64,000 bases of DNA from an uncultured Gammaproteobacteria bacterium (GTDB lineage: Bacteria > Patescibacteriota > Microgenomatia > Levybacterales > UBA12049): NCBI GenBank assembly GCA_964521295.1, contig CAZFRF010000001.1:7751-71750 (forward strand). Direction: 5' to 3'. Position numbers and translations under genes: made by a program. This document shows, piece by piece, positions 6,488-56,927 of this stretch (position 1 is its first letter; each line of letters begins with the position of its first letter). The notes below the pieces were generated by a model. The model worked only from the letters and a program-made list of their open reading frames with translations. It made no database searches and was not told the origin of the DNA.

Positions 6488-7381
6488 ATGGCTTTATCAA
6501 GACATGAAACGTTTTCATGGTTTCATAACAGAGGAAATAGAGGTGTGACGGTAGGCAATAGAGGGGGTTCACGCAGGTCTCGATATGATTTAGCTAGGGA
6601 GCACATACGTGATACATTTGATGATCAGGCATCAGGAATAGCTACGGGAAGATATGCCGCTTTTAGGGGTCTGAAGGGAGCTGCCTTTTTAGATGAATAT
6701 TTGCGAGATCCTCTTTTTTCTCAGTTTTTTACTGGAGCTGCAGACTTCGCTACTTCGGAACCAGATAATGATGAGTTTGAACGACATGTTAGAGGAGCAG
6801 CTTTTGAGTTGATGGCAGATTTATATTTAGCTTCACATGATCGTTCACCTCGAGTGCCGATTACAGGAACAATAGCAGCTGAAGTTCAGCATATATTAAA
6901 ACCAGATTTAAAAGTTATTGAAAGCAAAATAGGGCAGCAAGGTATACATCGTCAAACTCTTTATGATGGATTTATGGTACAAAGCAATCGTAAGGGTGCA
7001 CCCCGGGCTGAGGGAGCTATTGAGGCAACATTAAGCAGTGATTGGCGGGTTAAAAAAACAAGGCAGATTAGGGGGGTTAGTCGATTTTTTGAAGACTTAC
7101 GAGAATTGGGATGTAGAGATCCTTATTTAATAATAATTACACCTAAGTTTGCTCCTGATGGATCTCATGATTCCCAGTTTGAAATTGTAGAAGGGCAAGT
7201 TATTGAACGAGCTTATGTTCCTGTTTCTATTCAGTATTTGATGAAGGAATTTTTCCCTTATTTATTTAATGAACATCAGATTGTAGATAGTCTAACTTTG
7301 GCTGAACAAAGAACACAATGGTTGGCAAGTCCTGCAGTTAGTGATATGAAAATCGGGGAGCCTGCATTTTACAGAAAATAG
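6488..7381 (+). CDS. Hypothetical protein, atypical composition (Arg/Gly/Asp-rich), co-directional 10 nt downstream of glyA
   Basis: Long ORF with host-like codon usage; no recognisable motif. Confidence 0.5.
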   Translation: MALSRHETFSWFHNRGNRGVTVGNRGGSRRSRYDLAREHIRDTFDDQASGIATGRYAAFRGLKGAAFLDEYLRDPLFSQFFTGAADFATSEPDNDEFERHVRGAAFELMADLYLASHDRSPRVPITGTIAAEVQHILKPDLKVIESKIGQQGIHRQTLYDGFMVQSNRKGAPRAEGAIEATLSSDWRVKKTRQIRGVSRFFEDLRELGCRDPYLIIITPKFAPDGSHDSQFEIVEGQVIERAYVPVSIQYLMKEFFPYLFNEHQIVDSLTLAEQRTQWLASPAVSDMKIGEPAFYRK

Positions 7382-7388
7382 AAAAAGC

Positions 7389-10300
7389 TTATGGTGCAAC
7401 TTCTCTCCAGATTCTAGGAGCTACTTGTAAAAATGAGGGCGCATTAAGGGTAAAATCTGGTCTTTCTTGAATGTAAAACACAGGGCAATTGGCATCATCG
7501 GCACATCTGTCTCTATTATTTATAAAGCTTCCTCCGTTAAGTCCTGCATTTACAACAATAGCTCCTTGTAGATTTAGTCTATAATCTTTCGTTGGACAAT
7601 TATTTTCTCCGTCTAGGGTAAAGTTTCTGTCAGCACTATACCAGCCTTCAACTTGGAAACTATCGTAGACATTGGCTTGGTTGATGCCGACAGTTCTATT
7701 AATAATGATATTTCCTCCGTTACCATTGCTTCTGGGTCCAGCGCTAAAGATTACTGTTGAACCAATAGGAACATGAATTTCATTATCAATATATAAGTTT
7801 CCATGAACTAGGATTACATAATTTTTGCCTGCAGGGAATGTTGTATTTTCAGTGATACGTAAATCACCCTCAGCTCTGTAAATTCCATTTGGTAGAGCAG
7901 CAGCTGTATTTGGTAAATCGCAATCATTTAAGTTTCCACCGCAGTAGCTAGTTAAGTCTCTAATAGTTAAACCGTTTTTAGTTGCTGCCGCTAAGAGATA
8001 ATTATAAGAAGTTTTGATAATTCCGTTACTTGGTGTATAAGTTTCTGGATACTTGCCAACGCCAGGAATGTCTCCAACTTGCCAGTTGTAGGGATTAACT
8101 GATGCTTGACCTCCACCAAAATCTGGAGCGGCATTGCCAGAGTAAATTACTCCTGGAGTACTATCAGTTCTTAGTCTAATTGAACCATAAGCTCCGTGGG
8201 TTGTACCATCTGGTTCAGTGCAGACTGCTCCAAGTGGAATTTGATTAGTGTATCCATCATTAAACCAGATATCTGATCCACCTGATTGTATCCAAGGAAC
8301 GTTATTATTTATTCCAAAATTCATATTCGTAATGTTTCCAGAATTGCATTGTGTTTTCCAGCTGGAATTACTTGGAGTTCTTCCATCATTAGTGGTGCAT
8401 TGTCCCGTTCCGGTTCTAACTGTTAAATTAGGTGTCCCATCGACTTTTGGATAGGTCATTAAGTAGCTTGCAGGTTTACTAGAATAAGCTACGGTGTAGT
8501 TTCCAGCAGTTAGGCCTGTAAAGTTAAAAGCGCCTGTGTTGTTAGTTACCGTTTTTAACGGTGAAGTTGATTCGTCAGGCAAGGAAGAACCACTGTATAA
8601 ATAAATTCTTGTTTGACCAGCGCTATAATTTGCATCTGTATTATTTTTATATCCGTCTTTATTCTCATCTATAAAAACATTTCCTGAGATGGTGAAGTAG
8701 GGTACAATCTCAATTTGTGCTTCATAGCTTCTACATACATTGGATCCTGGATTACAGACGGAAACCGTTGGATGGGCAAAAGTGTTCAAGGTATTATATG
8801 AGCTTTCAATGCTCCAAGTGGTTGTTGGCTGATTAACATTTATAGTTGTGCCATGGTCAGGAGTAGGCCATTTGTAATCTGGAACTCTATTATCAACTGT
8901 TCTGCAGCCAACCGCTGTAAGTCTTGATGTGTCTTGATTTGTGACACCGGGGTGAACAAGAGTAGGGTTAGCCGTTAATCCACCTGTGCAAGTTGGGGGA
9001 GGGGGTTGAATTCCAAAATTTGCCACTTGATTAGCTGGTGGTACAACGTGTTTTGTTTGTGGGTTATTGGTAGTTAAGGTCCATCCAGATGGAATACCGG
9101 AAATGGTAATTGTGTAATCATTAGCTGGTAATCTTGTTAAAGCTACTGATCCAGCAGCTCCAGTGTCACCAGATTTATATGTTGGATCAGCATCTGTTGC
9201 AATGTCATAGGGAATGTTTTTTGCTGCTATATCAGTTGAATCTTGAGTTGCATTACCATCGTAATCAACAAAAGTATTAATTGTTAAATTACCAAGACAC
9301 GCAGTTTGTGCACCAGTAGTTCTATGTGCGGTTACACTTTTAACAGTTGGGTCATCATGAGTACCTGTTGTGTGGCCAATAACATACCAATCATATTGAG
9401 TATTAAATGCTAAACCTTCAACTGTACGAGTATTTGGTCCAGATGCTTTTGGTTCAATTTTACCTATTCTTGTAAAATTAGCAGAAGAGTGTCTTTTGTA
9501 ATATAAATCGTAACTATCCTCATAGGGTATATGGCTCCAGCTAAATGTAATTGCTGCTCTGTTGGAGCTATCGCAGGATGCCGAAGAGCTTAGATCTACA
9601 GGGCCGACAGGACAACCTGATCCACAAACTGCTGCATTCAAATTGCGTACATCATTGGTGTTTCTAACGCATTCTTTATGTCTTTGTATTCCGGTACCTT
9701 TAAATTCACAAGTCGTTCCATATCTTACACAGGAGTTATTTCCTGTTCCGCAAACTCTAACATTATCACAGTCATTATCGTTTTGGCATTCATCAACGGG
9801 ACCACATTTATTATTGCAATCACTGCTAGCATAATCTCCTCCGACTTTTTTTACGCATTGTCCGTTACTTTGACAACTATATCTATTTACGCAATCATTA
9901 CTAACACAGGTTTTATTGTTATTGCAGTCAGTGTTCTTAGTACAATCACAAGAGCCATTATTTACGCATGTTCTATTGTCCTTATCTGTGTTAGTTCGAC
10001 ACATGCTTGAACCACTGTAGTTATAATTACAGCTATATGTTGTTCTGGTGCAGTTTGAATTGCAGACGGATTGTCCGTTAGAGCAAAGATCGACAAGCCC
10101 GGCTTTAACACAATCATTGCTGGTATTGGCAGGACATTTAGTATTAAAATAAACAGCACCTAAATTATTGGGTTTTCCGCAACCTCTATACTTTATTGTA
10201 TTAGTAGATCCACTATGGCAAGATGCATCTGTGCCAATTAAGTAATATACATTGTATGGGTCAGATGGTCCACCAACATATGTTGCTTTTACATCAAATT

Positions 10301-10616
10301 CTGGATCAACGCATGATGTTCGCCATTCTATTCTGTCATTTAGTTTTGGTTTATAATTGCGTATTTTATAGTCCGTATTGCCTGATAAATTTGTATAACC
10401 AGTCCAAAGATTAATTGGACCTAGATCTTTAGCCCCTTTATACCAAAATCGCACCTGCCAATTTGTACCTACATTATTAAAATTATGAAAATAAATTTGA
10501 GTAATATCTTCTGCAGACGATTTGCCATGTGAGGCTTGGAAAAAAGAAATTGATAGTAAAACAATTATTATTAATTTAAAAAACTTATTCATTATTTGAT
10601 AATTGTGAATACTCAT
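7389..10616 (-). CDS. Large (1075 aa) secreted/anchored cell-surface protein: N-terminal signal-anchor, Cys-rich repeat region, FN3-like and two Cna-B/SdrD-B-like domains, C-terminal beta-helix-like region
   Basis: N-terminal hydrophobic segment; dense CxxxxC spacing around residues 150-330; an ISGNVFIDENKDGYKNNTDANYSAGQTRIYLY...GNYTV segment typical of SdrD-B/Cna-B folds. Confidence 0.7.
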   Translation of the reverse strand: MSIHNYQIMNKFFKLIIIVLLSISFFQASHGKSSAEDITQIYFHNFNNVGTNWQVRFWYKGAKDLGPINLWTGYTNLSGNTDYKIRNYKPKLNDRIEWRTSCVDPEFDVKATYVGGPSDPYNVYYLIGTDASCHSGSTNTIKYRGCGKPNNLGAVYFNTKCPANTSNDCVKAGLVDLCSNGQSVCNSNCTRTTYSCNYNYSGSSMCRTNTDKDNRTCVNNGSCDCTKNTDCNNNKTCVSNDCVNRYSCQSNGQCVKKVGGDYASSDCNNKCGPVDECQNDNDCDNVRVCGTGNNSCVRYGTTCEFKGTGIQRHKECVRNTNDVRNLNAAVCGSGCPVGPVDLSSSASCDSSNRAAITFSWSHIPYEDSYDLYYKRHSSANFTRIGKIEPKASGPNTRTVEGLAFNTQYDWYVIGHTTGTHDDPTVKSVTAHRTTGAQTACLGNLTINTFVDYDGNATQDSTDIAAKNIPYDIATDADPTYKSGDTGAAGSVALTRLPANDYTITISGIPSGWTLTTNNPQTKHVVPPANQVANFGIQPPPPTCTGGLTANPTLVHPGVTNQDTSRLTAVGCRTVDNRVPDYKWPTPDHGTTINVNQPTTTWSIESSYNTLNTFAHPTVSVCNPGSNVCRSYEAQIEIVPYFTISGNVFIDENKDGYKNNTDANYSAGQTRIYLYSGSSLPDESTSPLKTVTNNTGAFNFTGLTAGNYTVAYSSKPASYLMTYPKVDGTPNLTVRTGTGQCTTNDGRTPSNSSWKTQCNSGNITNMNFGINNNVPWIQSGGSDIWFNDGYTNQIPLGAVCTEPDGTTHGAYGSIRLRTDSTPGVIYSGNAAPDFGGGQASVNPYNWQVGDIPGVGKYPETYTPSNGIIKTSYNYLLAAATKNGLTIRDLTSYCGGNLNDCDLPNTAAALPNGIYRAEGDLRITENTTFPAGKNYVILVHGNLYIDNEIHVPIGSTVIFSAGPRSNGNGGNIIINRTVGINQANVYDSFQVEGWYSADRNFTLDGENNCPTKDYRLNLQGAIVVNAGLNGGSFINNRDRCADDANCPVFYIQERPDFTLNAPSFLQVAPRIWREVAP

Positions 10617-11295
10617 TCGGAAAATTATTTTTTATAAAATTTAATAATTTATCTCCAATGATGATATTTTGTTTAGTTTTAGAAGCGTCAATATTGTTTT
10701 TTAAATCTTGAGCGAGCAGAAAGTATTGATTTGCTTTTATATCATTTTGTGTTTTCGATCTATAACCAGTATTTATTAAATCCATTATTAAAGTAGTTTG
10801 TAGTTCTTTGGGTAGATCGCTTTTTTGAATTTCCTCTACAATATTTAATATCTCCTTTGGTTGAGGTGTGTCTGCGCAGGTTGAATCAATACATGGATAA
10901 TTATAAATTTCCTTATTTTCTGAGTAATATTTAGGAAAATTTTTAGAAGTATATGATTTTATTAATTCAAGTGTTTTAGTGTAATTGGGATCGTTTGTTT
11001 CTGAATAATTAAATACTACTTCAGTAAAAAGTGCTTCAATATATTTTATTTTTTCACTTTCTGACTTTTCAATTGTTATGTTTTTAAAATATTCATCTAT
11101 TTTGCCTCTTCCTGAATAAGGTGAGGGCTTCAGATTGCTAATTGATAAATTAAGTTCATTTAAATCTTTGTCGGAAAATTTAGAATTACTTAAAGGATTT
11201 GAATATTTATCAATTAAACTAATTGCAATTACTGCAACTATTATTAATACAATAATTAAAAATAAAATTGCTATATAAATTCTATTATTAGCCAT
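10585..11295 (-). CDS. Membrane-anchored hypothetical protein (N-terminal TM helix)
   Basis: N-terminal hydrophobic segment IAILFLIIVLIIVAVIAISLI. Confidence 0.45.
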   Translation of the reverse strand: MANNRIYIAILFLIIVLIIVAVIAISLIDKYSNPLSNSKFSDKDLNELNLSISNLKPSPYSGRGKIDEYFKNITIEKSESEKIKYIEALFTEVVFNYSETNDPNYTKTLELIKSYTSKNFPKYYSENKEIYNYPCIDSTCADTPQPKEILNIVEEIQKSDLPKELQTTLIMDLINTGYRSKTQNDIKANQYFLLAQDLKNNIDASKTKQNIIIGDKLLNFIKNNFPNEYSQLSNNE

Positions 11296-11350
11296 AAGAT
11301 GCCTAATTAAAGGGTAAGGTATTATAAATTTTTTGTCAACAGTGGGGGAA

Positions 11351-12139
11351 TTAAATAACTGATGTTAGGAAGCTGTCTACAAATTCTTTCATTCCTTTAG
11401 GAAAAATTGGTGAAGTTACCTCCCAATTATATAGTTGGCATGCTGCATCCCATGCTTTTTGTCTTGTTTCAGGTGATAGACTTTGATCTTTACTTAGATA
11501 GAATAAGCCAACTGTTGCGCTCATGCAGTATCCTTCTCTATCTCTTAATTCCATCTTGTTATTCTTACAGTTTTTTAAATCCTTATTTGGATCTACTCCA
11601 ACTGCATCTAAATAACTAGCAACAGCTTCTGGATCTTTATAGACTTGTTTTGCTAATTTAACGCCATTATTAAGAGAGCCTTTTCTAGGTTCCTTGTCTT
11701 GCATAAATTCTCTTATATCATGGCTAACTTGAGGTGTTGGTTCAGGTGTTGGTTGAGGATTTTCAGTAGGTTTATTAGGCAATGTACAGATAAGAGTTGA
11801 TCCATCAGACATAGTTTGTTTTGCAAGTACAATGCTTGGAGCAGGGTGCTCAACTCCTAAGGCAGTATTGCTTACGCCCGCTGTTTGAATAACATTTGGT
11901 GTTGGTTCTGCGCCTGGAGGTATAACACAGGCTGGAGGAATCATAAGAAAAATCGAAGCATATAAATTAAATGGAACCTCTCCAATTATTTGGGTTTGTT
12001 CAATTTGAGCCGTTTGTGTTTCGGGTTGGGGAGTTGGTGCTTGAGCTAGTGCTCCATGAGACCCTAAAATTTCTGCCCCTGCTACTGCAGTTGCGATTAT
12101 TTTAGCCCTGTGACCTTGTAAAAGCCTTTCTGGACTCAT
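11351..12139 (-). CDS. Hypothetical protein with Pro/Thr/Gln-rich linker
   Basis: ORF with PTPQPETQTAQ and PTENPQPTPEPTPQ linker segments; a TTGACA-17-TATTAT promoter lies upstream on the minus strand. Confidence 0.45.
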   Translation of the reverse strand: MSPERLLQGHRAKIIATAVAGAEILGSHGALAQAPTPQPETQTAQIEQTQIIGEVPFNLYASIFLMIPPACVIPPGAEPTPNVIQTAGVSNTALGVEHPAPSIVLAKQTMSDGSTLICTLPNKPTENPQPTPEPTPQVSHDIREFMQDKEPRKGSLNNGVKLAKQVYKDPEAVASYLDAVGVDPNKDLKNCKNNKMELRDREGYCMSATVGLFYLSKDQSLSPETRQKAWDAACQLYNWEVTSPIFPKGMKEFVDSFLTSVI

Positions 12140-12221
12140 ATCCTATATAATTCCTACCTTGAGTGAATAATACTATGAGGTTAAGTTTTTGTCAAGAGGG
12201 AGGCTAAATTAGATTGCTATT

Positions 12222-12797
12222 TCAATCTAATTGTGTACTCAATATAGTAAAATCGTTATCTTTTCCTATTTCATATTCGATGTTGAATTTTTTTTCATAA
12301 TTTTTTTGGATAAAAAGTAAATCACAGGCTATATCTTCGATCGCAGACGAGTTGTCGGCTGCAATGGTATCCCTATCAATTATTCCGCAGCTTGTGTTTT
12401 TATCAATTTTTAGATTAATAAGCGTGTCTTTATAGTAAAAATATAAATTATCGTCTTTTTTTCTAAAAAAACTTGCGTTAATAGACCAGCTATTGGTATT
12501 TTTTGAATAAATCCTATTGTCACTTAAAAGTTTTATTGCAGATAAACTTTGTTCTGATGAGTACTTATGAGGGAGATCGAAGAAATAATTTGGGTAGTTT
12601 TGGGATAAGGGTATGATATTTAAGTAATTTAAGCAGAGAATTAGAATGACTAAAATCGGAATAAGCAAAATTATTAAAAATATGCTCTTAATGAATCGAT
12701 TTGCGAAAAGTTCAAGTTTTAAAAATGGTTTTCTAAAAGAATATGCGTCTTTTGCATTAGGTTGATATTGTAGATCATTTACGTTTGATTCCTGCAT
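12222..12797 (-). CDS. Membrane-anchored hypothetical protein
   Basis: One TM helix (IFLIILLIPILVILILCL); no motif recognised. Confidence 0.4.
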   Translation of the reverse strand: MQESNVNDLQYQPNAKDAYSFRKPFLKLELFANRFIKSIFLIILLIPILVILILCLNYLNIIPLSQNYPNYFFDLPHKYSSEQSLSAIKLLSDNRIYSKNTNSWSINASFFRKKDDNLYFYYKDTLINLKIDKNTSCGIIDRDTIAADNSSAIEDIACDLLFIQKNYEKKFNIEYEIGKDNDFTILSTQLD

Positions 12798-12810
12798 AAA
12801 TTAACGCAAT

Positions 12811-13464
12811 TTACTGACTGACAACTGGCTGCGTGGTAGGGGATGTTGTAATAAGTGTAATTTGTCCGTCTTTTGTTTCTTTTAGAAGTGATTCATCTGT
12901 GCCATTGCCGTGGACGCTTGTTTTAGGCATAAAATTGAAAGATGTAGTTGGGACATCAGGGTTAGGAGTGAGTGTAAAAGTAATTTTAGCTAAGTTTCCT
13001 TTAGACATTACTCCGGATTCACCTAATGATGTGCCAATTGCGTAGGATATTCTACCGTTGGGTTGGTCAATTGTTTTTAAAGCTTCAGTAGCTGAGCTAA
13101 AATAATCTAATGGAGAAATGGTTACATTAGAAACAACTTTTGGATCATAGTAAAGTTCTAGCTGGACTCCAGTTACTGTATTTTTGCCAGAATCAAGATA
13201 AACAATAGAAGAATATGTTCCATCTGAATTCTTTTCTGCATTGAGAACAGAAAGAGTCGAGTCAGCATTATTTTCTTTTACCATTGGAGTTTGCTTTAGG
13301 ACTTCATTTAGCTTTCCTTTTGGAGAAATGGCTACGTATGTAAGTAAAGCTGCGATAATTGCAAGTAAAACAATTAAGAGAATTGTTTTTAATGGCACAC
13401 CAAATGAAGATTCTGTATGCGCTTCTGGTTTAGCCTCTGGTTGTTTAACTTGTTGTTCGTCCAT
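12811..13464 (-). CDS. Membrane-anchored cohesin-domain protein
   Basis: N-terminal TM helix, then VTGVQLELYYDPKVV...GNLAKITFTL resembling the cohesin fold signature (dfvysYDPnvL...vfAtivakV). Confidence 0.5.
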   Translation of the reverse strand: MDEQQVKQPEAKPEAHTESSFGVPLKTILLIVLLAIIAALLTYVAISPKGKLNEVLKQTPMVKENNADSTLSVLNAEKNSDGTYSSIVYLDSGKNTVTGVQLELYYDPKVVSNVTISPLDYFSSATEALKTIDQPNGRISYAIGTSLGESGVMSKGNLAKITFTLTPNPDVPTTSFNFMPKTSVHGNGTDESLLKETKDGQITLITTSPTTQPVVSQ

Positions 13465-13503
13465 AAAATAATTGTTAACTATTTAAAAATTCTTGTCAAT
13501 TAC

Positions 13504-15024
13504 TTAATCTCCATTTTGAATAGAAAATTCTTGGAGGAAGTAAATATAATCGATTTGGTCAATGGTTCCGTCGTCGTTGATATCTGCATTTAATTTATAA
13601 ATGTCATTTGAATTGCAGGCGGTTTTGTCGGAATCTGTCTTAGCAAAGATAGAGCAGGAGACAAATAGGTTATAATCTTCAATTCCAATACTATTATTCA
13701 TATTAATATCGCCATTAGTAAGATTAACAGCAGGGATAGCATTGTGTTCTTTTTTTGGATCAATGAAAACAGTGCCGGGAATTTGTTTAGTTAAAAAGCC
13801 TGGAATAGTAAGTTTTACAATATAATTTCCCGCTACTAAGTCGTATCCATTTCCATTTTCTATTTCCAATGAGCCAATAAATTTACCATAATTAGCTGTT
13901 GTTTCTTCTGCTTGATAATTAACTTTAGTGTGTGCCTCGCCAAATTTTTCATTTTTTAAATTATAGATTTCAAGCTTTACTTCTCTTTCTGTATGGACTG
14001 GATTTTTATTTGATGCTGTAAATGCAGGAACTCTATTTGTTCCAGTAGTTCCAATAGTGTCAAGTCCAAGCACCACATCTAAATTAAATGTGTCTTTAGG
14101 TGCTGGGTCAGTTTGGCAGGATGCGCCTTCTGTAGTGCATCCTCCTGTGTTTGCTCCACAAGCAGCAACTTTGACACATGCTTTATTTTGACATTCAAAA
14201 TGTGGATTTGAATTGGTTCCCGTACAAGTTGGACCTGACTCCTGAATTGTATATTTAAGAGCAAAGCTATCTTTTTTAGCAGGTTTTGCTTTGTTAGCAA
14301 CTTCAATATTAATTGTTTTGGTTCCAGTTGCTCCTGCTTTCGATTTAATTTTTACCTTAGCAGTATCCTCTTTGCCATTTTTTAAAGTTGAAATTGCATT
14401 TGGTACAAAATCTACAGTCCAGTTAGTAGGTAAATTTAACGCAGTAAGTTTAAAGTTCGCGGGATCACAGCGAATATTATTGTTTTTAACGTTAATGGTA
14501 TATGTAAGTATTGAGCCTGCAGCTCCGGTTTTCTCAGCTTCACTTGAGGTAATAGTTGGATTTAGCTCTTTACATTCTGCTGTTACTACGTAGCCAATGT
14601 TTTTAACAATATCTTTTGCGTTTGCATTATTAATATTAGTAGCAGCAACAGAGTTGATGTTGTGTGTTCCGACTGTGGCATCTCTTGGGGGAGTTACTGT
14701 TCCATTGAAGTTAACTGTAGCATTTTCTGCAACAGTTACTACGTTAGTATTGCTGACCTTGTCTCCTGCAAAGTCAATTTTCCAACCTGAGGTTGCACTT
14801 CCGGGCAGATTTGCGGTTAACTTGTATTTCTTAGCGCCATCTGCTGCAGCACAATTTTTAAGTTGGAAATGGTAGGTTACAGAGTTTGGGTGATTTGTAT
14901 GTCCTGTTAATTTAAGAATTGGATCAGGACAAGCAGCGTTTGCTGAAGTTGTGGTGAAGGAAAAAACGCTTAAAACGAAAAATGATATTAATAAAACCTT
15001 AATTGATTTAATTAGGAAATGCAT
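13504..15024 (-). CDS. Secreted surface protein with C-terminal dockerin-like domain
   Basis: Signal peptide; Ig-like repeats; C-terminal duplicated Ca-binding loops GDINMNNSIGIEDYNLF and DINDDGTIDQIDYIYF (type-I dockerin pattern). Confidence 0.6.
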   Translation of the reverse strand: MHFLIKSIKVLLISFFVLSVFSFTTTSANAACPDPILKLTGHTNHPNSVTYHFQLKNCAAADGAKKYKLTANLPGSATSGWKIDFAGDKVSNTNVVTVAENATVNFNGTVTPPRDATVGTHNINSVAATNINNANAKDIVKNIGYVVTAECKELNPTITSSEAEKTGAAGSILTYTINVKNNNIRCDPANFKLTALNLPTNWTVDFVPNAISTLKNGKEDTAKVKIKSKAGATGTKTINIEVANKAKPAKKDSFALKYTIQESGPTCTGTNSNPHFECQNKACVKVAACGANTGGCTTEGASCQTDPAPKDTFNLDVVLGLDTIGTTGTNRVPAFTASNKNPVHTEREVKLEIYNLKNEKFGEAHTKVNYQAEETTANYGKFIGSLEIENGNGYDLVAGNYIVKLTIPGFLTKQIPGTVFIDPKKEHNAIPAVNLTNGDINMNNSIGIEDYNLFVSCSIFAKTDSDKTACNSNDIYKLNADINDDGTIDQIDYIYFLQEFSIQNGD

Positions 15025-15193: not shown

Positions 15194-16036
15194 ATGAAAG
15201 ATATATCACTAGAACAACTTCTTGAAGCCGGATGTCATTTTGGCCATCAAGTAACCAGATCAAACCCTAAAGCTAGGGATTTTGTTTTCGAGGCAAGAGA
15301 CAATATTCAAATTATTGACTTAGGTAAAACCAAGGAAGGATTAGATGCAGCAGCAGCATTTGTTAAAACACTTGGGCAAGCAGGTAAAACATTTTTGGTT
15401 ATTGGTACTAAAAAACAAGCAAAGCAAATAATTGAAGAAGAAGTTAAAAGAGGAAGAGAAGAATTGGGCGAAGAGGGATCAGCTAAGCTCTATTACATTA
15501 CTCAAAGATGGGTTGGTGGAATTTTAACTAATTTCCCAGAGGTTTCTAAGAATTTCAAAAAACTTTCTGAATTAAAAGCTAATTTAGCAACAGCTGAAAT
15601 GAAAGCTAAATATACTAAAAAAGAAATCGGTCTTTTTGATAAAGAAAGACAAAGATTAGAAGGTTTCTATTCAGGGATTGTGGGAATGACTCAAAAACCA
15701 GACGCGCTCTTTATTATTGATTCTCATATGGAGAATCTAGCAGTTAGAGAGGCACTATCAACTCATGTTCCAACAGTCGCTATTGTTGATACAAATGCAG
15801 ATCCATATATTATTGATCATCCAATTCCAGCAAATGATGATGCTGTTGGTAGCATTAAATTAATTGTAGGACATATTATTGATGCTTTTGTTGAAGGAGT
15901 TAAGCATCCAGAGAAAAAAGCAGTTGAGAAACCAGCTAAAGAAGAATCAAAATCAAAAGAAGCTAAAGAAACTCCAAAAGAAGAAAAGAAGGAAGTTAAG
16001 AAAGCTACTAAAGTAAAAAAGACAACCAAAAAATAA
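15194..16036 (+). CDS. rpsB: 30S ribosomal protein S2 with Lys/Glu-rich C-terminal tail
   Basis: LLEAGCHFGHQ N-terminal motif; S2 fold throughout. Confidence 0.93.
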   Translation: MKDISLEQLLEAGCHFGHQVTRSNPKARDFVFEARDNIQIIDLGKTKEGLDAAAAFVKTLGQAGKTFLVIGTKKQAKQIIEEEVKRGREELGEEGSAKLYYITQRWVGGILTNFPEVSKNFKKLSELKANLATAEMKAKYTKKEIGLFDKERQRLEGFYSGIVGMTQKPDALFIIDSHMENLAVREALSTHVPTVAIVDTNADPYIIDHPIPANDDAVGSIKLIVGHIIDAFVEGVKHPEKKAVEKPAKEESKSKEAKETPKEEKKEVKKATKVKKTTKK

Positions 16037-16037
16037 T

Positions 16038-16490
16038 ATGGCATTAGACGTAACGCTTATTAAAAAATTAAGAGACGAAACTTCAGCCTCTATTGCAGAT
16101 TGCAGAAAAGCCCTTGAAGAAACAGATGGCAATTACGAAAAAGCTTTGGATTGGTTGAAAAAACATGGTATAGAAAAAGCTGAGAAAAAAGCAGACAGGG
16201 AAACAGGCCAAGGGTTAGTTGAATCATATATTCATCAAAATGGTAAAGTAGGATCTGTACTCGTTATTCTTTGTGAAACAGATTTTGTTGCTAGAACTGA
16301 GGATTTCAAGAAATTAGCCCATGAAATTGCAATGCAAGTTGCAGCTATGGATCCTAAAGACGTTGACACCTTATTAAAACAAGAATATATTAGAGACAAC
16401 TCTGTTACTATTAATGATTTAGTAAAGCAAACGATAGCAAAGCTCGGAGAAAACATTGTAGTAAGAGAATTTAAAAGATTTGAAATATAA
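16038..16490 (+). CDS. tsf: Elongation factor Ts (short form)
   Basis: N-terminal UBA-like LIKKLRDETSASIADCRKALEETDGNYEKALDWL; 150 aa. Confidence 0.85.
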   Translation: MALDVTLIKKLRDETSASIADCRKALEETDGNYEKALDWLKKHGIEKAEKKADRETGQGLVESYIHQNGKVGSVLVILCETDFVARTEDFKKLAHEIAMQVAAMDPKDVDTLLKQEYIRDNSVTINDLVKQTIAKLGENIVVREFKRFEI

Positions 16491-17050
16491 TGGATTCTAA
16501 TTTATCTCAGGCACAAGTTAATATGAAAAAAGTCCTGGAGGTCTTAAACACAGATCTTTCCACAGTCAGGGCTGGAAAAGCATCCCCATCTTTAGTTGAT
16601 AATATAATGGTTGGCGCATATGGCGGAACTCAAAAACTAAGAGTAATGGAGCTTGCTCAAATTCACGCATTAGATAATCAAACTTTAGCTATAACACCAT
16701 ACGACGCATCAATAATTGGTGAAATTAAAAATGCAATTTTAGAATCTAATACAGGGCTTACGCCAGTAATAGATGGACAAGTTATTAGAATTTCAATCCC
16801 TCCATTGTCAGAAGAGAGAAGACAGCAATTAGTTCACTTGGTAAATCAAAAATTAGAAGGTGGAAGAATTCAGGTTAGACAAGTTAGACATGAGGAAATG
16901 GAAGCTATTAAAAAAAGTTTTGCTGATAAATTAATTACAGAAGATGATAGGGATAGGCTTGAAAAAGAAGTGCAGAAAATAACTGATGAAACTATTGCTA
17001 CAATTGACTCTATGGGAAAGCAAAAAGAAACAGAGTTAATGCAAATTTAA
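16490..17050 (+). CDS. frr: Ribosome recycling factor
   Basis: RRF length and conserved R-rich C-terminal helix. Confidence 0.88.
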   Translation: MDSNLSQAQVNMKKVLEVLNTDLSTVRAGKASPSLVDNIMVGAYGGTQKLRVMELAQIHALDNQTLAITPYDASIIGEIKNAILESNTGLTPVIDGQVIRISIPPLSEERRQQLVHLVNQKLEGGRIQVRQVRHEEMEAIKKSFADKLITEDDRDRLEKEVQKITDETIATIDSMGKQKETELMQI

Positions 17051-53831: not shown

Positions 53832-56800
53832 ATGGAAGAGAATCCATCAAAATTGAATTTATTTTTTTCGCAGGTAAAGTCTTTTTTTACTTCGAATAGT
53901 CTTTTATTTAAATTCCTCCCGGTTCTAGTTTTAGGTTTAGCCATTCCTGCGACAGTATATTTATCTCAACAACAACAAAGTATTCGAAACTTTGCAGCTG
54001 AGACAGTTAAGCCAGAAGTTAAAAAAGAACCAGAATTTTTCGGATACATTGTTGAATTTAAGTCTCAGCCATCAGTTAAATCTACTGCAGGTAAATTAAC
54101 ATCTAAATTAGTCGATAACGATTCAATTGCGTCTTTAAGGAACGCAAACACCTCTTTATTAAGGGAGCATCAGGAAATTAAAAAAGATCTTTTAGCAAGA
54201 ATAGGAAAAAATTCTTTTGACTTAGATAAGATAAAAAAAGGAGATAAGAAAGTTAAATTACTTGGGGAATATACAACTTCTTTTAATGGTATAGCAATTG
54301 ATGCTGATGAGGATCAAATTGCAAAAATTAAAAGTTCTCCACAAGTTAAAGCAGTCCATAAAAATTATGCAGTAAAGGCAAATTTAATGGATTCGGTGCC
54401 ACTTATTGGAGTAGATAGAGTTTGGCAGTCTGTCAAAGATAAAATCGATGGCAGTCCTGTAACGGGTAAGGGAATAAACATAGCTGTTTTAGATTCAGGA
54501 GTGGATTATGCTCATCCTGATTTGGGCGGAACGAATCTACAGGAGAGAAATTTTATAAAAATTAATAATACTCCTGTTAAAACAATTGCAAGTGTCATGG
54601 AGGAACAATTATTTTCTTATGACGGAGACAAGGTTGCTTATTCTTCGGGAAACAATAAGGTTTCTATTTATTCATTCTCTACAGGTAAAACCCAAACAGT
54701 AGACGTAGAAACAAATCTTTCTGGATCTGGAATTACAACTCTTCTTTTAAGAGGTGATAATTTATTTATAAACTTTTTATATTCTGGTCCCGGGAGCGCA
54801 ATTTATTATAAAAATTTAACCACAGGTGAATTTAAAAAAGTAACTAATATTACTTCTGCAGATGGTTATTTGCCGATAAGTTCCAGAATGAATTATTATA
54901 ATGGAAAACTTTATTATGAAAATAATCCTGGTACGCTTTCAGAAGAAGGAACTTCCTTGCAAAGCATCTATTCTTATGATGTTGCAACTTCAACTAATTC
55001 ACTTCTTATTGATGTTCAATCACATGGTTTCGTAATGCTTGATATATCAGGCGATAAATTAATCTATAGAAAAGGTTTAGGTGGATACGATAATCCAAAT
55101 AGAGTTATAGTTTACAATCTTTCTTCTGGAGTAAGTCAAGAGTTACCAATGCAAAATGTAAGGCGAGTACAGGATATAAAAGGAGATTATATTTTATACA
55201 ATGAGTACGCTTACGGAGATAGATATCATTATTATAATATTGTAACTAGAGAAGATAAAGTTATTGAATATCCAAATCTAACTCAATATCAAAACTCCCA
55301 AGTTTCAGATAATAATACTCAAAATGTAGGTTTTAAGTTTGATAGTGGTAATTTAGGATCAATCGGTGACGGAATAATCTTTTTTGAAAAAACAAGGAAT
55401 GAAGAATTAATAGCTGCATATGATTTGTCTCTAAATCGTTATGTAATCTTAAATTTAAAATTACCCATTAAAACAATTCAAGTACAAGGAAAAAAGATGT
55501 GTTTTTCTACAGAGACACAATTTGATGCATTTAGCACTTCTAATATTTATTGTCATGATTATGATGCTTCTTTTGCCTATCCTATGCCTGCGAATGTTTT
55601 CAACACCAAGGTTGTAGGTGGTTATAATTTTATTGAAAATAACAATAATCCTCTAGATGATAATATGCATGGTACTCATGTTTCAGAAATAATTGCTGGA
55701 AATGGGGCTCTTAAGGGAATTGCGCCAGACGCAAAAATTGTTGCATATAAAGTATTAAATAAAGGAGGAGTTGGAAGTTTTAGCGATATAATTTCAGCTT
55801 TAGATAGGGCTATTGCAACAAGAACAGATTCTGATTCGAATAATGATATTGATGTTATTAATTTAAGTTTGGGTGGATATTGTTCAATTCCGTATACAGC
55901 AGATTGTGGTCCAGAAGATCCAGCTTCAACTGCGGTGAATAATGCTGTTGATGCGGGGATAGTAGTCGTCGTTGCTGCCGGTAATGATGGTCCACTTGCA
56001 AGTACAATTGGAACTCCTGGATTAGCTGAAAAAGCTATTACAGTTGGAGCAGTTGATAAGAAAAAAGAAGTTACTAGTTTTAGCTCTCGAGGTCCGGTAA
56101 TTTTAAACGGTCATAATTTTCACAAGCCAGATATTCTAGCTCCAGGTAAAGAAATTTGTTCTGCAACTCTATACGGGTTTGGTTTTTATCCGTCTAAAAC
56201 TTGTGCACCTGGAAGTTATATTTCAATGAGCGGCACAAGTATGGCAGCTCCCCATATTGCTGGTATTGCAGCTTTGATTTTACAGTTGCATCCAGATTGG
56301 ACGCCGCAACAAGTAAAAGATGCTATAAAAAATAGCGCAGATGACCTACATCTTGGGGAAGATATGCAGGGAGCAGGTTTGGTCAATACTCTTAAAATAT
56401 TTAACGCTCAAACTTCATCACCAACACCTACGCCTGAGCTTAAAATAACAAGAATAGTTGCAAATCAAGATGCTTATGTAAATAAAAATACTCCAAGTAA
56501 GAATTTTGGAAAAACTAATACGCTTTTACTAGACAATAATCCACGAAGTATAGGATATTTAAAATTTGATTTAACTAAACTCGCTGGAAAGCAGATTAAA
56601 AGTATAAAACTTGTTTTAACAGTTTCAAAAAATTCAGCTTCATATAAAAATGGTGGGGCAGATATTTATGTAACAAGTAATAATTGGCAAGAGGCTAAGA
56701 TTAATTTTAATAATAAACCTGCACTCGGAACATATGTATATCGTTACATTAATTTAGTAAAAAGTAATACTTCTTTTACGCTTAATTTGACAAATGAATT

Positions 56801-56927
56801 GAAGCAATATGCAGGACAAGTATTATCACTATCTTTAAGTCCTGTTTATAATTTTAATCCTGGTTTGTATGTAAATTCTTCTGAAGCAGTAACTGGAAAG
56901 CCTACTTTAATTATTGAATATCGATAA
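53832..56927 (+). CDS. Subtilisin-like S8 serine protease, 1031 aa, with a large insertion between catalytic Asp and His
   Basis: Asp motif AVLDSGVDYAHPDL, His motif HGTHVSEIIAG, Ser motif GTSMAAPHIAGIAAL. About 350 aa of propeller-like repeats separate D and H; C-terminal beta-rich extension; N-terminal signal anchor. Confidence 0.85.
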   Translation: MEENPSKLNLFFSQVKSFFTSNSLLFKFLPVLVLGLAIPATVYLSQQQQSIRNFAAETVKPEVKKEPEFFGYIVEFKSQPSVKSTAGKLTSKLVDNDSIASLRNANTSLLREHQEIKKDLLARIGKNSFDLDKIKKGDKKVKLLGEYTTSFNGIAIDADEDQIAKIKSSPQVKAVHKNYAVKANLMDSVPLIGVDRVWQSVKDKIDGSPVTGKGINIAVLDSGVDYAHPDLGGTNLQERNFIKINNTPVKTIASVMEEQLFSYDGDKVAYSSGNNKVSIYSFSTGKTQTVDVETNLSGSGITTLLLRGDNLFINFLYSGPGSAIYYKNLTTGEFKKVTNITSADGYLPISSRMNYYNGKLYYENNPGTLSEEGTSLQSIYSYDVATSTNSLLIDVQSHGFVMLDISGDKLIYRKGLGGYDNPNRVIVYNLSSGVSQELPMQNVRRVQDIKGDYILYNEYAYGDRYHYYNIVTREDKVIEYPNLTQYQNSQVSDNNTQNVGFKFDSGNLGSIGDGIIFFEKTRNEELIAAYDLSLNRYVILNLKLPIKTIQVQGKKMCFSTETQFDAFSTSNIYCHDYDASFAYPMPANVFNTKVVGGYNFIENNNNPLDDNMHGTHVSEIIAGNGALKGIAPDAKIVAYKVLNKGGVGSFSDIISALDRAIATRTDSDSNNDIDVINLSLGGYCSIPYTADCGPEDPASTAVNNAVDAGIVVVVAAGNDGPLASTIGTPGLAEKAITVGAVDKKKEVTSFSSRGPVILNGHNFHKPDILAPGKEICSATLYGFGFYPSKTCAPGSYISMSGTSMAAPHIAGIAALILQLHPDWTPQQVKDAIKNSADDLHLGEDMQGAGLVNTLKIFNAQTSSPTPTPELKITRIVANQDAYVNKNTPSKNFGKTNTLLLDNNPRSIGYLKFDLTKLAGKQIKSIKLVLTVSKNSASYKNGGADIYVTSNNWQEAKINFNNKPALGTYVYRYINLVKSNTSFTLNLTNELKQYAGQVLSLSLSPVYNFNPGLYVNSSEAVTGKPTLIIEYR

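Follow-up and report, generated by a model that had tools for sequence, protein, structure and literature searches.

We propose, with moderate confidence, that six adjacent genes in the analysed stretch of DNA (64 kb, referred to as the window) form a conserved envelope operon of a tiny-genome, Microgenomates-type CPR bacterium that encodes a minimal, non-cellulosomal, type-II-like cohesin/X-dockerin module for surface tethering. Judged from sequence, the probable role of the pair at its core, coh217 and doc506, is to keep surface proteins without enzymatic activity attached to the cell, not to degrade cellulose. The six consecutive minus-strand genes described in the first-pass annotation were all found in the ORF listing, exactly where they had been placed (Table 1). 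They are tightly spaced (from doc506 to the gene of the giant protein, gaps of 39, 13, 82, and 55 bp and then an overlap) and are flanked by the divergent rpsB-tsf-frr and the convergent p297/glyA. Hydropathy analysis agreed with the earlier view that all six products are secreted or membrane-anchored, the signal-like segment of p262 (...GALAQA/PTPQ) being weak; coh217, p191, and p236 each have a single N-terminal TM anchor (KD 3.1–3.65). The assignment of the organism to the CPR was likewise supported, as the family members carrying organism names are all Patescibacteria (Levybacteria and Roizmanbacteria).

Table 1. Features of the six-gene cluster (positions in the window; aa, residues of the product).
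Feature	Residues	Position	Strand	Basis
doc506, secreted cargo protein	506 aa	13504..15024	-	ORF; NPCBM_assoc; AF2; homologues
doc506 predicted signal peptide, cleavage between ANA and A	1–30	14935..15024	-	hydropathy and AXA motif
doc506 tandem NEW3/CARDB-like beta-sandwiches	31–147 and 157–260	14245..14934	-	PF10633, AF2
doc506 Cys-rich knot, six Cys	265–305	14110..14232	-	Cys positions; conserved in A2
doc506 X-module, beta-sandwich, directly before dockerin	310–430	13735..14097	-	AF2, family profile
doc506 dockerin, two Ca-loop/helix repeats	435–506	13507..13722	-	PF00404; homologues; PDB matches
coh217, membrane-anchored, single cohesin	217 aa	12811..13464	-	ORF and Pfam PF00963
coh217 TM anchor	27–46	13327..13386	-	KD 3.10
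coh217 cohesin domain	72–203	12856..13251	-	Pfam envelope
p191, N-terminally anchored	191 aa	12222..12797	-	TM aa 38–56, KD 3.43
p262, weak signal-like N-terminus, Pro/Thr/Gln-rich linkers	262 aa	11351..12139	-	ORF, hydropathy
p236, N-terminally anchored	236 aa	10585..11295	-	TM aa 10–28, KD 3.65
Giant secreted protein	1075 aa as ORF	7389..10616	-	ORF, Pfam, Cys positions
Giant Cys-rich region, 29 Cys	102–348	9573..10313	-	Cys positions
Giant SdrD_B/Cna-B-like beta-sandwich	645–724	8445..8684	-	PF17210
Giant C-terminal domain gC, DUF7305-like	765–1075	7392..8324	-	alignment A3

The TM-anchored cohesin proposed at first pass is a true cohesin behind one TM helix. coh217 scored 35.0 bits against PF00963 (cut-off 24.1) over profile positions 4–138 of 139; its PDB sequence matches are weak (E 0.4). 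In the cohesin family A1 (17 members), the QxE..DP and NGRISY blocks are invariant; all but one of the 16 homologues come with a precomputed Cohesin match. The charge balance flanking the TM helix is ambiguous in coh217 itself. In distant relatives, the TM helix comes right after an initial MSKKT, as in a classical N-in signal anchor, suggesting that the cohesin domain of coh217 faces the outside of the membrane. Since the linker comprises only ~25 residues, the cohesin would lie beneath the wall or S-layer and not at the outermost surface.

The partner, doc506, is composed of a signal peptide, two NEW3/NPCBM_assoc beta-sandwiches, a Cys knot, an X-module, and a dockerin. Its N-terminus has a hydropathy of 2.23 over residues 3–21 and a predicted cleavage site at ...TTSANA/ACPDP. 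NPCBM_assoc (PF10633) was matched above the cut-off in two stretches (41.1 bits). The AF2 model has a pLDDT of 72 overall and 80–93 in the sandwich block, about 70–80 for the strands of the X-module, and low values around the knot cysteines (267, 278, 283, 289, 296, and 303). A Foldseek search with the sandwiches recovered only generic tandem-Ig adhesins and scaffolds (UafA, RbmA, intimin, and SdrD).

A duplicated Ca-binding dockerin had been claimed at the C-terminus of doc506. Full-length doc506 gave no dockerin match in Pfam, and the C-terminal 85 residues submitted alone reached 16.1 bits against PF00404 (E 0.013; cut-off 22.9); the AF2 confidence over this region is low (44–61). The dockerin call nevertheless holds because of the family-level evidence. 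Homologues with the same module exceed the cut-off (P0028, 27.8 bits; P0029, 34.1 bits), and Dockerin_1 is matched by 23 of the 74 representatives (best 4e-16) of an X-module-dockerin (X-Doc) family comprising 728 representative clusters at E ≤ 1e-10. The family profile matches the X-Doc dyads of CipA (2b59_B, E 4.2e-8; 3kcp_A, 1.4e-7) and Acetivibrio cellulolyticus ScaA (4wi0_B, 1.6e-6) in the PDB, as well as type I dockerins; the part of doc506 aligned to the dyads is the end of the X-module and the dockerin. The ScaA X-Doc is also the best single-sequence PDB match of doc506 (residues 389–501, E 0.011). The two Ca loops, DINMNNSIGIED and DINDDGTIDQID, have D/N ligands at positions 1, 3, 5, and 12, and these intact ligands suggest that the domain binds Ca. 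In the alignment of doc506 homologues (A2; 38–92% identity), G438, D439, N444, D450, Y451, C457, D481, N483, D484, D485, G486, D492, and Y493 are invariant, as is a Cys457-Cys470 pair between the two repeats; in close relatives, an insertion lengthens the second Ca loop by six residues. By its sequence, the domain is a divergent dockerin.

The idea that doc506 and coh217 pair with each other is strengthened by conserved gene adjacency. Of the genome loci, 11 extend far enough to show what precedes the cohesin gene, and in each of them at least one X-Doc gene is located directly upstream; the adjacency persists down to 31% cohesin identity. The same arrangement (X-Doc first, same strand, gaps of ~3–180 bp) was found at dozens of independent metagenome loci, which had been fetched by X-Doc alone and not by the cohesin. 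A cohesin is adjacent at 41 of the 70 evaluable metagenome loci (28 of the 35 closest), and all 41 of these cohesins are about 208–210 aa long with an N-terminal anchor; ~40% of the evaluable X-Doc loci have no adjacent cohesin. In relatives with cohesin identities of 47–79%, the whole six-gene cluster lies between rpsB and glyA.

Translation of the giant protein probably begins at M9 (nt 10592) and yields 1067 aa, since P0030, with 92% identity, has this length. A signal-peptide-like N-terminus (by hydropathy) is followed by the Cys-rich region, an FN3-like domain, SdrD_B repeats, and the C-terminal domain gC. The Cys-rich region noted earlier is present, holding 29 of the 42 Cys residues, and has no family match in Pfam. 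Of the FN3/Cna-B-like folds also claimed for this protein, the Cna-B-like part stood: PF17210 (SdrD_B) was matched at 39.9 bits (cut-off 29.7) in two stretches, the weaker one upstream, with a weak PDB match to the collagen-binding adhesin 8bdw_A. For the FN3 part, the only match was a sub-threshold one in a 70%-identical homologue (23.9 vs 25). Domain searches in Pfam placed the cohesin and SdrD_B above their cut-offs and supported the dockerin at the family level. Domain gC ends in an invariant E[VI]AP and has 54 invariant columns in A3. Its match to DUF7305 is below the cut-off of 27 both in the giant (17.7 bits) and in six of the seven gC members (best of these, 25.3); no PDB sequence match was found, and its AF2 model has a pLDDT of 39.7. 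On these results, the beta-helix claimed for the giant at first pass stays putative. The giant resembles MSCRAMM-type Gram-positive adhesins in its SdrD_B repeats and N-terminal signal peptide, and the doc506 stalk resembles theirs in the UafA, SdrD, and intimin-like tandem Ig folds recovered. Unlike MSCRAMMs, the giant lacks an LPXTG sortase signal and a recognised A-domain ligand-binding region, and its C-terminus is the conserved DUF7305-like domain ending in EVAP; the Cys-rich region is also unusual for that group. Giant orthologues of 1093–1191 aa, some with CARDB, occupy the same cluster position in loci L004–L009. No known domain was found in p191 (Pfam and NCBIfam), p262, or p236 (Pfam). 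Loci L007, L008, and L009 have p191 orthologues at the corresponding place; orthologues of the fast-evolving p262 occur in L008 and L009, and those of p236 in L004–L009.

Since neither the giant nor the three small proteins have a cohesin or dockerin, their tie to the pair is one of synteny only, and co-conservation and the recurrent gC neighbourhood make the giant a candidate member of the cohesin-dockerin assembly. It is possible, although we consider it doubtful, that only doc506 and coh217 form a unit and that the giant, p236, p262, and p191 belong to a separate gC-based fibre or adhesin system sharing the operon. None of these four proteins carries a cohesin or dockerin, more distant genomes possess the pair without p191, p262, or p236, and gC also occurs as stand-alone proteins of 314–373 aa. 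The 82-bp gap that precedes p262 contains a strong promoter-like site (TTGACA-17-TATTAT, 11/12); however, such sites are not enriched compared to shuffled sequences (37 vs 32.1 ± 5.4). The separation is further opposed by the order and strand of the six genes, which are kept from rpsB to glyA in L004–L009, and by the recurrence of gC genes next to cohesin or X-Doc genes, seen in L014, in L017, and at 7 of 80 metagenome loci.

The two domains might also be true homologues without affinity for each other. In that case, their adjacency would reflect co-regulation of envelope proteins, the cohesin would be an Ig-like spacer or bind another ligand, and the dockerin would be a Ca-dependent stabilising or wall-binding module. 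The divergence and poor AF2 modelling of the doc506 dockerin, the loop insertion in its close relatives, and the many X-Doc genes lacking a cohesin neighbour are in line with such a reading, but we regard it as improbable. The same-strand order with short gaps, retained at low cohesin identity and across the metagenome loci, is typical of physically interacting pairs, and the Ca ligands of the dockerin and the core blocks of the cohesin are invariant. To our knowledge, every characterised cohesin-dockerin pair binds.

In Clostridium thermocellum, the X-Doc of CipA is held on the cell by the cohesin of SdbA. doc506 and coh217 are similar to this pair (2B59 and 3KCP) in that a secreted protein without catalytic function ends in an X-module and dockerin, that the cohesin partner belongs to a protein anchored to the cell, and that the contact would serve cell tethering rather than enzyme integration. 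The differences are also clear. SdbA is an SLH-domain protein, whereas coh217 (217 aa) is anchored by one TM helix at its N-terminus; the clostridial system has a multi-cohesin scaffoldin and CBM3, whereas a single cohesin is present here; and doc506, unlike CipA, carries no further cohesins or enzymes and has the invariant Cys pair in its inter-repeat linker. The host is a CPR organism, not a member of the Clostridia, and identity is low, the doc506 dockerin alone falling below the Pfam cut-off. The X-Doc of A. cellulolyticus ScaA, bound by the ScaB cohesin (4U3S and 4WI0), aligns with doc506 over the X-module end and both dockerin repeats, but that pair belongs to a large cellulosome with several scaffoldins and involves no membrane anchor.

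Cohesin and dockerin modules in organisms that do not degrade cellulose have been proposed to function in adhesion or other protein assembly (Peer et al. 2009, as cited in PMC10066038), and non-cellulosomal examples include the Ruminococcus bromii amylosome (PMC4611034) and giant dockerin proteins of Omnitrophota (PMC10066038). Unlike those modules, the present ones form a cognate adjacent pair, with at least one X-Doc cargo gene followed by a 210-aa TM-cohesin gene, recurring across Microgenomates-type CPR genomes; the literature searched contained no description of such a gene pair for the CPR. A dockerin-domain envelope protein of the Saccharibacteria member Southlakia epibionticum, SEML1_0315, is essential for epibiotic growth by Tn-seq, with host glycans suggested as its targets, either for adhesion or for degradation (PMC10633639). 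By description, it is like doc506 a dockerin-bearing patescibacterial envelope protein, but its CPR class is a different one, and that study reported no cohesin partner.

The first-pass annotation had argued against a cellulosome at this locus, and we agree: the window has exactly one cohesin and one dockerin and no multi-cohesin scaffoldin, and no catalytic domain was found in the six products with Pfam and NCBIfam. A cellulosome-like display in miniature, in which the cohesin anchors CAZymes encoded elsewhere while doc506 and the giant bind environmental or host-wall polysaccharide, seems quite unlikely on the same grounds. Some observations do point toward glycans. X-Doc proteins of other genomes carry GH26 (P0028, 43.8 bits), GH39, pectate-lyase-like, polysaccharide lyase, CBM_4_9, and GH catalytic core domains, and that of L017 carries CBM60; the NEW3 domain is associated with glycosidases; CBM77 is matched weakly, below the cut-off, by giant orthologues (17–21 bits); and the X-Doc proteins encoded without a neighbouring cohesin could dock in trans. 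Enzymes are, however, a minority, being found in ~6–7 of 74 members, whereas over 30 have adhesion-type or Ig-like domains, and the cargo is dominated by SdrD_B, VWA, CarboxypepD_reg, fn3, PA14, Invasin_D3, and Big_1. Chance similarity of low-complexity Asn/Asp-rich sequence in an AT-rich genome (GC ~33%), which the E-values of the doc506 dockerin alone and of the cohesin PDB matches might suggest, is effectively refuted by the cohesin match, which spans 135 of 139 profile positions and exceeds the curated cut-off, the Dockerin_1 matches and invariant Ca ligands of the 728-cluster family, and the profile matches to solved X-Doc structures (E 4e-8).

In the tethering module that we favour, the N-terminal signal anchor of coh217 would insert the protein into the cytoplasmic membrane, with its one cohesin exposed outside. 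doc506 would be exported by Sec, lose its signal peptide, and fold into two NEW3 beta-sandwiches, a disulfide knot, the X-module, and a presumably Ca-binding dockerin. From homology and the strict gene adjacency, we presume that its X-dockerin plugs into the cohesin of coh217, so that the non-catalytic stalk would be held non-covalently on the cell, as CipA is by SdbA. By synteny, p191, p262, p236, and the giant are probably parts of the same surface structure. The likely role of the module here is the display of binding or adhesive surface proteins. Host attachment, suggested at first pass, is a candidate function. The GH26, GH39, and lyase cargo in other genomes indicates that, across the lineage, the anchor-plus-plug design also mounts enzymes, and that the X-Doc system serves for display in general and is not restricted to adhesion.

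ORFs were found at exactly the positions where the first-pass annotation had placed six consecutive minus-strand genes of secreted or membrane-anchored proteins (see the table). The genes are tightly spaced (39, 13, 82, and 55 bp, then a short overlap), with the divergent rpsB-tsf-frr genes on one flank and a convergent 297-aa ORF followed by glyA on the other. The overlap of the 1075-aa ORF (the giant) with the end of p236 is 32 nt (10585–10616) and would shrink to 8 nt with a start at Met9. A Kyte-Doolittle scan showed a classical cleavable signal peptide (...TTSANA↓ACPDP) at the N-terminus of doc506, the 506-aa protein, and one strong N-terminal transmembrane (TM) segment in each of coh217, the 217-aa cohesin protein, and the small envelope proteins p191 and p236. 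The third small protein, p262, has merely a weak signal-like N-terminal segment. The N-terminus of the giant is signal-peptide-like, and a Met9 start gives a canonical 'MNKFFK' n-region. Family-library scans found no family match for p191, p262, or p236. The 297-aa ORF, which lies 7 bp off the stop codon of the giant, is without a hydrophobic segment and is kept in place in locus L008 (57% identity) and weakly in L004–L006. No tRNA was found in the window. A promoter/terminator scan gave no higher counts than shuffled sequence did and thus speaks neither for nor against a single operon. Of the promoter-like sites in the region, which do not outnumber those of shuffles, the best one (TTGACA-17-TATTAT, 11/12) falls in the 82 bp separating p191 from p262 and may be an internal promoter splitting doc506-coh217-p191 from p262-p236-giant.

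Features of the surface-protein cluster and its surroundings (window coordinates)
Feature	Position	Strand	Description
297-aa ORF	6488-7381	+	convergent with the giant gene
giant	7389-10616	-	ORF, 1075 aa
Cys-rich stretch of the giant	9573-10313		aa 102-348
p236	10585-11295	-	ORF
p262	11351-12139	-	ORF
promoter-like site	12167-12195	-	
p191	12222-12797	-	ORF
coh217	12811-13464	-	ORF
doc506	13504-15024	-	ORF
Cys-rich stretch of doc506	14110-14232		aa 265-305
rpsB-tsf-frr	15194-17050	+	divergent flank of the cluster
tsf	16038-16490	+	EF-Ts, 150 aa
1031-aa ORF	53832-56927	+	

Residues 72–203 of coh217 matched the Pfam Cohesin family (PF00963) with 35.0 bits (cut-off 24.1) over profile positions 4–138 of 139, and this score across nearly the whole profile bears out the cohesin first proposed for the gene. 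A precomputed Cohesin match is held by 15 of 16 homologues. Searches of PDB sequences, single-sequence and small-family alike, gave weak matches only, those of the family profile being cohesins (4ums_A, E 0.4; 4uyp_A, 0.47). The window contains exactly one cohesin. The charge balance around the TM helix of coh217 itself is ambiguous; distant family members have 'MSKKT' directly before the TM helix, which argues that the cohesin is exported. A linker of no more than about 25 residues joins the TM helix to the cohesin, which should therefore sit near the membrane; the doc506 stalk would have to span the wall.

The Pfam scan of full-length doc506 gave two NPCBM_assoc/NEW3 matches (41.1 bits) and no Dockerin_1 match. 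The C-terminal 85 residues alone scored 16.1 bits against Dockerin_1 (PF00404; E 0.013), under the cut-off of 22.9. Despite this sub-cut-off score, we consider the dockerin assignment, and with it the duplicated Ca-binding dockerin of the first-pass annotation, sound on several grounds of sequence comparison. Both 12-residue Ca-loops, DINMNNSIGIED (aa 439–450) and DINDDGTIDQID (aa 481–492), carry D/N at positions 1, 3, 5, and 12, and these are invariant in the alignment of doc506 homologues (A2) and in alignment A7. Homologues sharing only the C-terminal module pass the Dockerin_1 cut-off (the GH26 protein P0028, 27.8 bits; P0029, 34.1 bits), and Dockerin_1 is matched by 23 of the 74 representatives of the family of X-module and dockerin dyads (X-Doc; best E 4e-16). 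Used as a profile, the 197-aa C-terminal unit matched solved type II X-Doc dyads from CipA of C. thermocellum (2b59_B, E 4.2e-8; 3kcp_A, 1.4e-7) and ScaA of A. cellulolyticus (4wi0_B, 1.6e-6), and after these a series of type I dockerins; across all solved dockerins matched, E runs from 4e-8 to 1e-2. The alignment with CipA and ScaA starts within the final strands of the beta-sandwich ahead of the dockerin and continues over both repeats, indicating that the module is an X-Doc dyad and not a bare dockerin. This is the only dockerin in the 64-kb window, and the protein carrying it is non-catalytic.

The AF2 model of doc506 (mean pLDDT 72, 13-sequence alignment) contains confident beta-sandwiches at aa 31–147 and 157–260, a poorly modelled six-Cys knot, a beta-sandwich of moderate confidence at aa 310–430 (pLDDT about 70–80) that corresponds to the X-module, and a C-terminus that is helical at low confidence, with helices following both Ca-loops. 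Since the dockerin part is of low confidence, the dockerin call was helped by the sequence profiles and not by the structure. Among PDB structures, Foldseek matched the model only to generic stalks of Ig-like tandems, as found in adhesins and scaffolds. A Cys pair between the two dockerin repeats (C457/C470) is invariant throughout the family; we know of no such pair in cellulosomal dockerins. In about half of the close family (P0021–P0027), the second Ca-loop carries a 6-residue acidic insertion (DLNDDGEDENTPNVDQLDY; A2, around columns 1020–1030) that disrupts the canonical 12-residue spacing; the loop of doc506 is canonical. Similar Cys-rich stretches occur in doc506 and the giant, with the pattern C..N.CV.V..CG.N..GC...G..C, which matches no family; the stretch is duplicated in the doc506 relative P0022. 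The two stretches may represent a common disulfide mini-module.

The giant contains 42 Cys, 29 of them within the Cys-rich stretch, and two stretches matching SdrD_B (PF17210; 39.9 bits, cut-off 29.7; best at aa 645–724), for which its orthologues reach up to 75.5 bits. FN3 (PF00041) gave no Pfam match to the giant at E ≤ 1 and scored 23.9 bits, under the cut-off of 25, at the equivalent position of the 70% identical homologue P0031. The word-indexed homologue search yielded only two relatives of the giant, and its orthologues were taken from the retrieved loci. The giant probably starts at Met9 (nt 10592), as judged from the 92% identical homologue P0030, which has 1067 aa, and from the orthologue alignment, which begins at residue 11. 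The conserved C-terminal 311 residues (gC, aa 765–1075) end with an invariant E[VI]AP. As to the putative right-handed beta-helix of the giant, the gC domain scored 17.7 bits against DUF7305 (PF23981; cut-off 27); six of the seven gC members match DUF7305, all of them below that cut-off (best 25.3), and one shows Ice_binding at 15 bits. The gC profile had no match among PDB sequences, and the AF2 model of gC, built from three near-identical sequences, was unusable (pLDDT 39.7). A pilin or type IV pilus reading of the giant and the other gC proteins was rejected; their N-termini are without the prepilin G↓F..E motif. In L014, L017, and 7 of 80 metagenome loci, a gC protein is encoded right beside an X-Doc or cohesin gene, and SdrD_B repeats usually precede gC in these neighbour proteins.

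Relatives with 47–79% identical cohesins keep all six genes in the same order and on the same strand: rpsB; the X-Doc protein, the cohesin, proteins of ~190, ~260–370, and ~220–270 aa, and a giant of ~1100–1190 aa; then two ORFs and glyA. Cohesin-based retrieval gave 12 genome loci, 11 of them with sequence upstream of the cohesin, and in all 11 one to three X-Doc-ending genes lie directly upstream, at cohesin identities down to 31%. In L009 the X-Doc copy was recovered in two tblastn pieces with no X-Doc ORF called, and in L017 each of two cohesins also has one X-Doc gene downstream. Since this retrieval is biased towards cohesins, the converse set was assembled from 80 metagenome loci fetched by the X-Doc profile alone, with an X-Doc ORF called in 79. 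Of the 70 loci that could be evaluated, 41 contain a cohesin ORF (28 among the 35 closest). It nearly always follows next on the same strand, in some cases behind a row of two to four X-Doc genes. All stand-alone cohesins of this set (41/41; median 208 aa) have an N-terminal hydrophobic anchor. Arrays of up to four consecutive X-Doc genes before one TM-cohesin gene were seen in L053, L037, L013, L023, L041, and L044, and single proteins with both cohesin and X-Doc, which resemble adaptor scaffoldins, in seven metagenome loci (L031, L034, L038, L045, L051, L056, and L071). These arrays and fusions suggest that some relatives may build higher-order assemblies. Two X-Doc/cohesin pairs each are present in L017, L066, and L078.

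Searched exhaustively with HMMER, the X-Doc unit gave 1436 representative clusters at E ≤ 1e-3, of which 728 reach E ≤ 1e-10. The X-module stands directly N-terminal to the dockerin, the two being kept as one 197-aa block in the 1436 clusters, and the module lies at the extreme C-terminus in nearly all of them, in proteins of 170–1440 aa. Cargo domains were scored by Pfam in 74 of 147 representatives (every other sequence): SdrD_B in 12, VWA in 9, CarboxypepD_reg in 8, Beta_helix and Cohesin in 5 each, NEW3 and GH39 in 2 each, and one each of GH26, a pectate-lyase-like domain, a polysaccharide lyase, PA14, fn3, CBM_4_9, Invasin_D3, and Big_1. Cohesin-adjacent cargo in distant genomes includes a VWA+CBM60+SdrD_B protein and an fn3 protein. 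Many X-Doc family proteins (P0037, P0076, P0083, P0111, P0131, and others) share a motif like '...QQQE.RSRA...' directly after the N-terminal hydrophobic segment, its strict form occurring in at least 16 of 134 full-length representatives. The motif is absent from doc506; the 1031-aa ORF of the window has '...PATVYLSQQQQSIRNFAAE'. The motif may serve as a signal for export or processing that is specific to the lineage.

By its closest relatives, the locus belongs with CPR genomes, in agreement with the organism type first suggested. Record titles of loci that share the cluster read Patescibacteria group or Candidatus Levybacteria, and the rpsB/tsf/frr of these loci are 56–98% identical to those of the window. 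An organism name was available for 4 of 20 X-Doc clusters looked up, and all four were Levybacteria, Roizmanbacteria, or Patescibacteria group. A cohesin identical to coh217 lies on a 935,984-bp contig. The same cluster is carried by four loci titled 'uncultured Gammaproteobacteria bacterium' (L008, L009, L011, and L018), whose rpsB/tsf/frr are 51–98% identical to those of the window and of Patescibacteria/Levybacteria MAGs; their label is probably wrong. The EF-Ts of the window has the same length in all relatives (PF00889 matches). EF-Ts has roughly 280 aa in typical bacteria, and the short form is consistent with the reduced proteins of CPR.

The doc506-coh217 pair, with its observed domains, signal and anchor segments, and conserved gene pairing, is best read as a minimal cohesin-dockerin tether. 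In this arrangement, coh217 would be a type II-oriented signal-anchor protein with its cohesin exported, and doc506 would be secreted upon cleavage of its predicted signal peptide. The C-terminal X-Doc would then plug Ca-dependently into the cohesin of the cell-anchoring protein, and the docked doc506 would form a roughly four-domain, non-catalytic beta-sandwich stalk held on the cell. The conserved adjacency to a dockerin gene lends indirect support to Ca-dependent dockerin binding by the cohesin. Participation of the co-conserved envelope proteins p191, p262, p236, and the giant is suggested by synteny and by the recurrent gC neighbourhood, and it is also plausible that the giant and the small proteins form a system independent of the pair and merely share its operon. 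The idea that the modules are homologous to cohesin and dockerin without binding each other fits poorly with genes that stay neighbours at cohesin identities as low as 31%. A glycan-degrading, cellulosome-like system, in which enzymes encoded elsewhere in the genome could dock in trans, finds no support at this locus. All six products lack a catalytic domain, and the window holds no dockerin-bearing glycoside hydrolase; a multi-cohesin scaffoldin with a CBM was also sought, and the single-cohesin coh217 was found with no other cohesin in the 64-kb window and no CBM match in Pfam, so the earlier preference for a surface assembly over a cellulosome holds. Chance similarity is refuted by the PF00963 match, the Dockerin_1 matches among the representatives, and the X-Doc structure matches.

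An adhesion or binding role for the tether fits the cargo repertoire, with enzymes mounted on the same X-Doc plug in other genomes. It also fits the essentiality of a dockerin-domain envelope protein, its partner not named, in the epibiont Southlakia epibionticum, one genetically tractable patescibacterium (PMC10633639). A link of the cluster to host attachment is conjectural. In a wider reading, which we think rather unlikely, the X-Doc/TM-cohesin pair would be the general protein-to-cell anchor of Microgenomates-type CPR, replacing sortase or SLH, whose small membrane cohesins mount changing adhesins (VWA, SdrD_B, and PA14) and enzymes (GH26, GH39, and lyases), and the six-gene rpsB-glyA cluster, including the gC-domain giant, would serve the presumed episymbionts as their core host-contact apparatus.

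The proposed design parallels that by which a type II X-Doc and its cohesin fix the cellulosome to the cell wall, but with a TM helix in place of SLH domains, a 1:1 stoichiometry, and no enzymes. Catalogues of cohesins and dockerins outside cellulosomes go back to Peer et al. 2009 (as cited in PMC10066038), and such modules have been proposed as adhesins in ultrasmall Omnitrophota (PMC10066038). In the full texts searched for dockerin or cohesin together with CPR, Patescibacteria, Microgenomates, and the like, no cohesin-dockerin pair was described for CPR. The mechanism itself is unsurprising, and the parts are ordinary family members in a distinct, apparently undescribed architecture. Apparently new are the operonic pair, in which one or more X-Doc cargo genes precede a 210-aa TM-cohesin gene, its lineage-wide occurrence in Microgenomates-type CPR, the predicted conserved disulfide in the dockerin, and the setting of the pair within a conserved envelope cluster that includes a gC-domain giant.

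To our knowledge, how CPR/Patescibacteria hold their hosts and feed on them is largely unknown beyond type IV pili in Saccharibacteria. The locus offers a concrete candidate partner pair, a 210-aa membrane cohesin and its X-Doc cargo side by side, conserved across Levybacteria- and Roizmanbacteria-type genomes, with the plug on more than 1,400 protein clusters that include adhesin-like and glycan-degrading cargo. If the two do not bind, the locus would merely be another set of Ig-like envelope proteins. If they do, the pair would define a lineage-wide surface-display mechanism, X-Doc tag searches would become a handle for cataloguing the CPR 'surfaceome', and a new, very small orthogonal cohesin-dockerin pair would be available for protein engineering.
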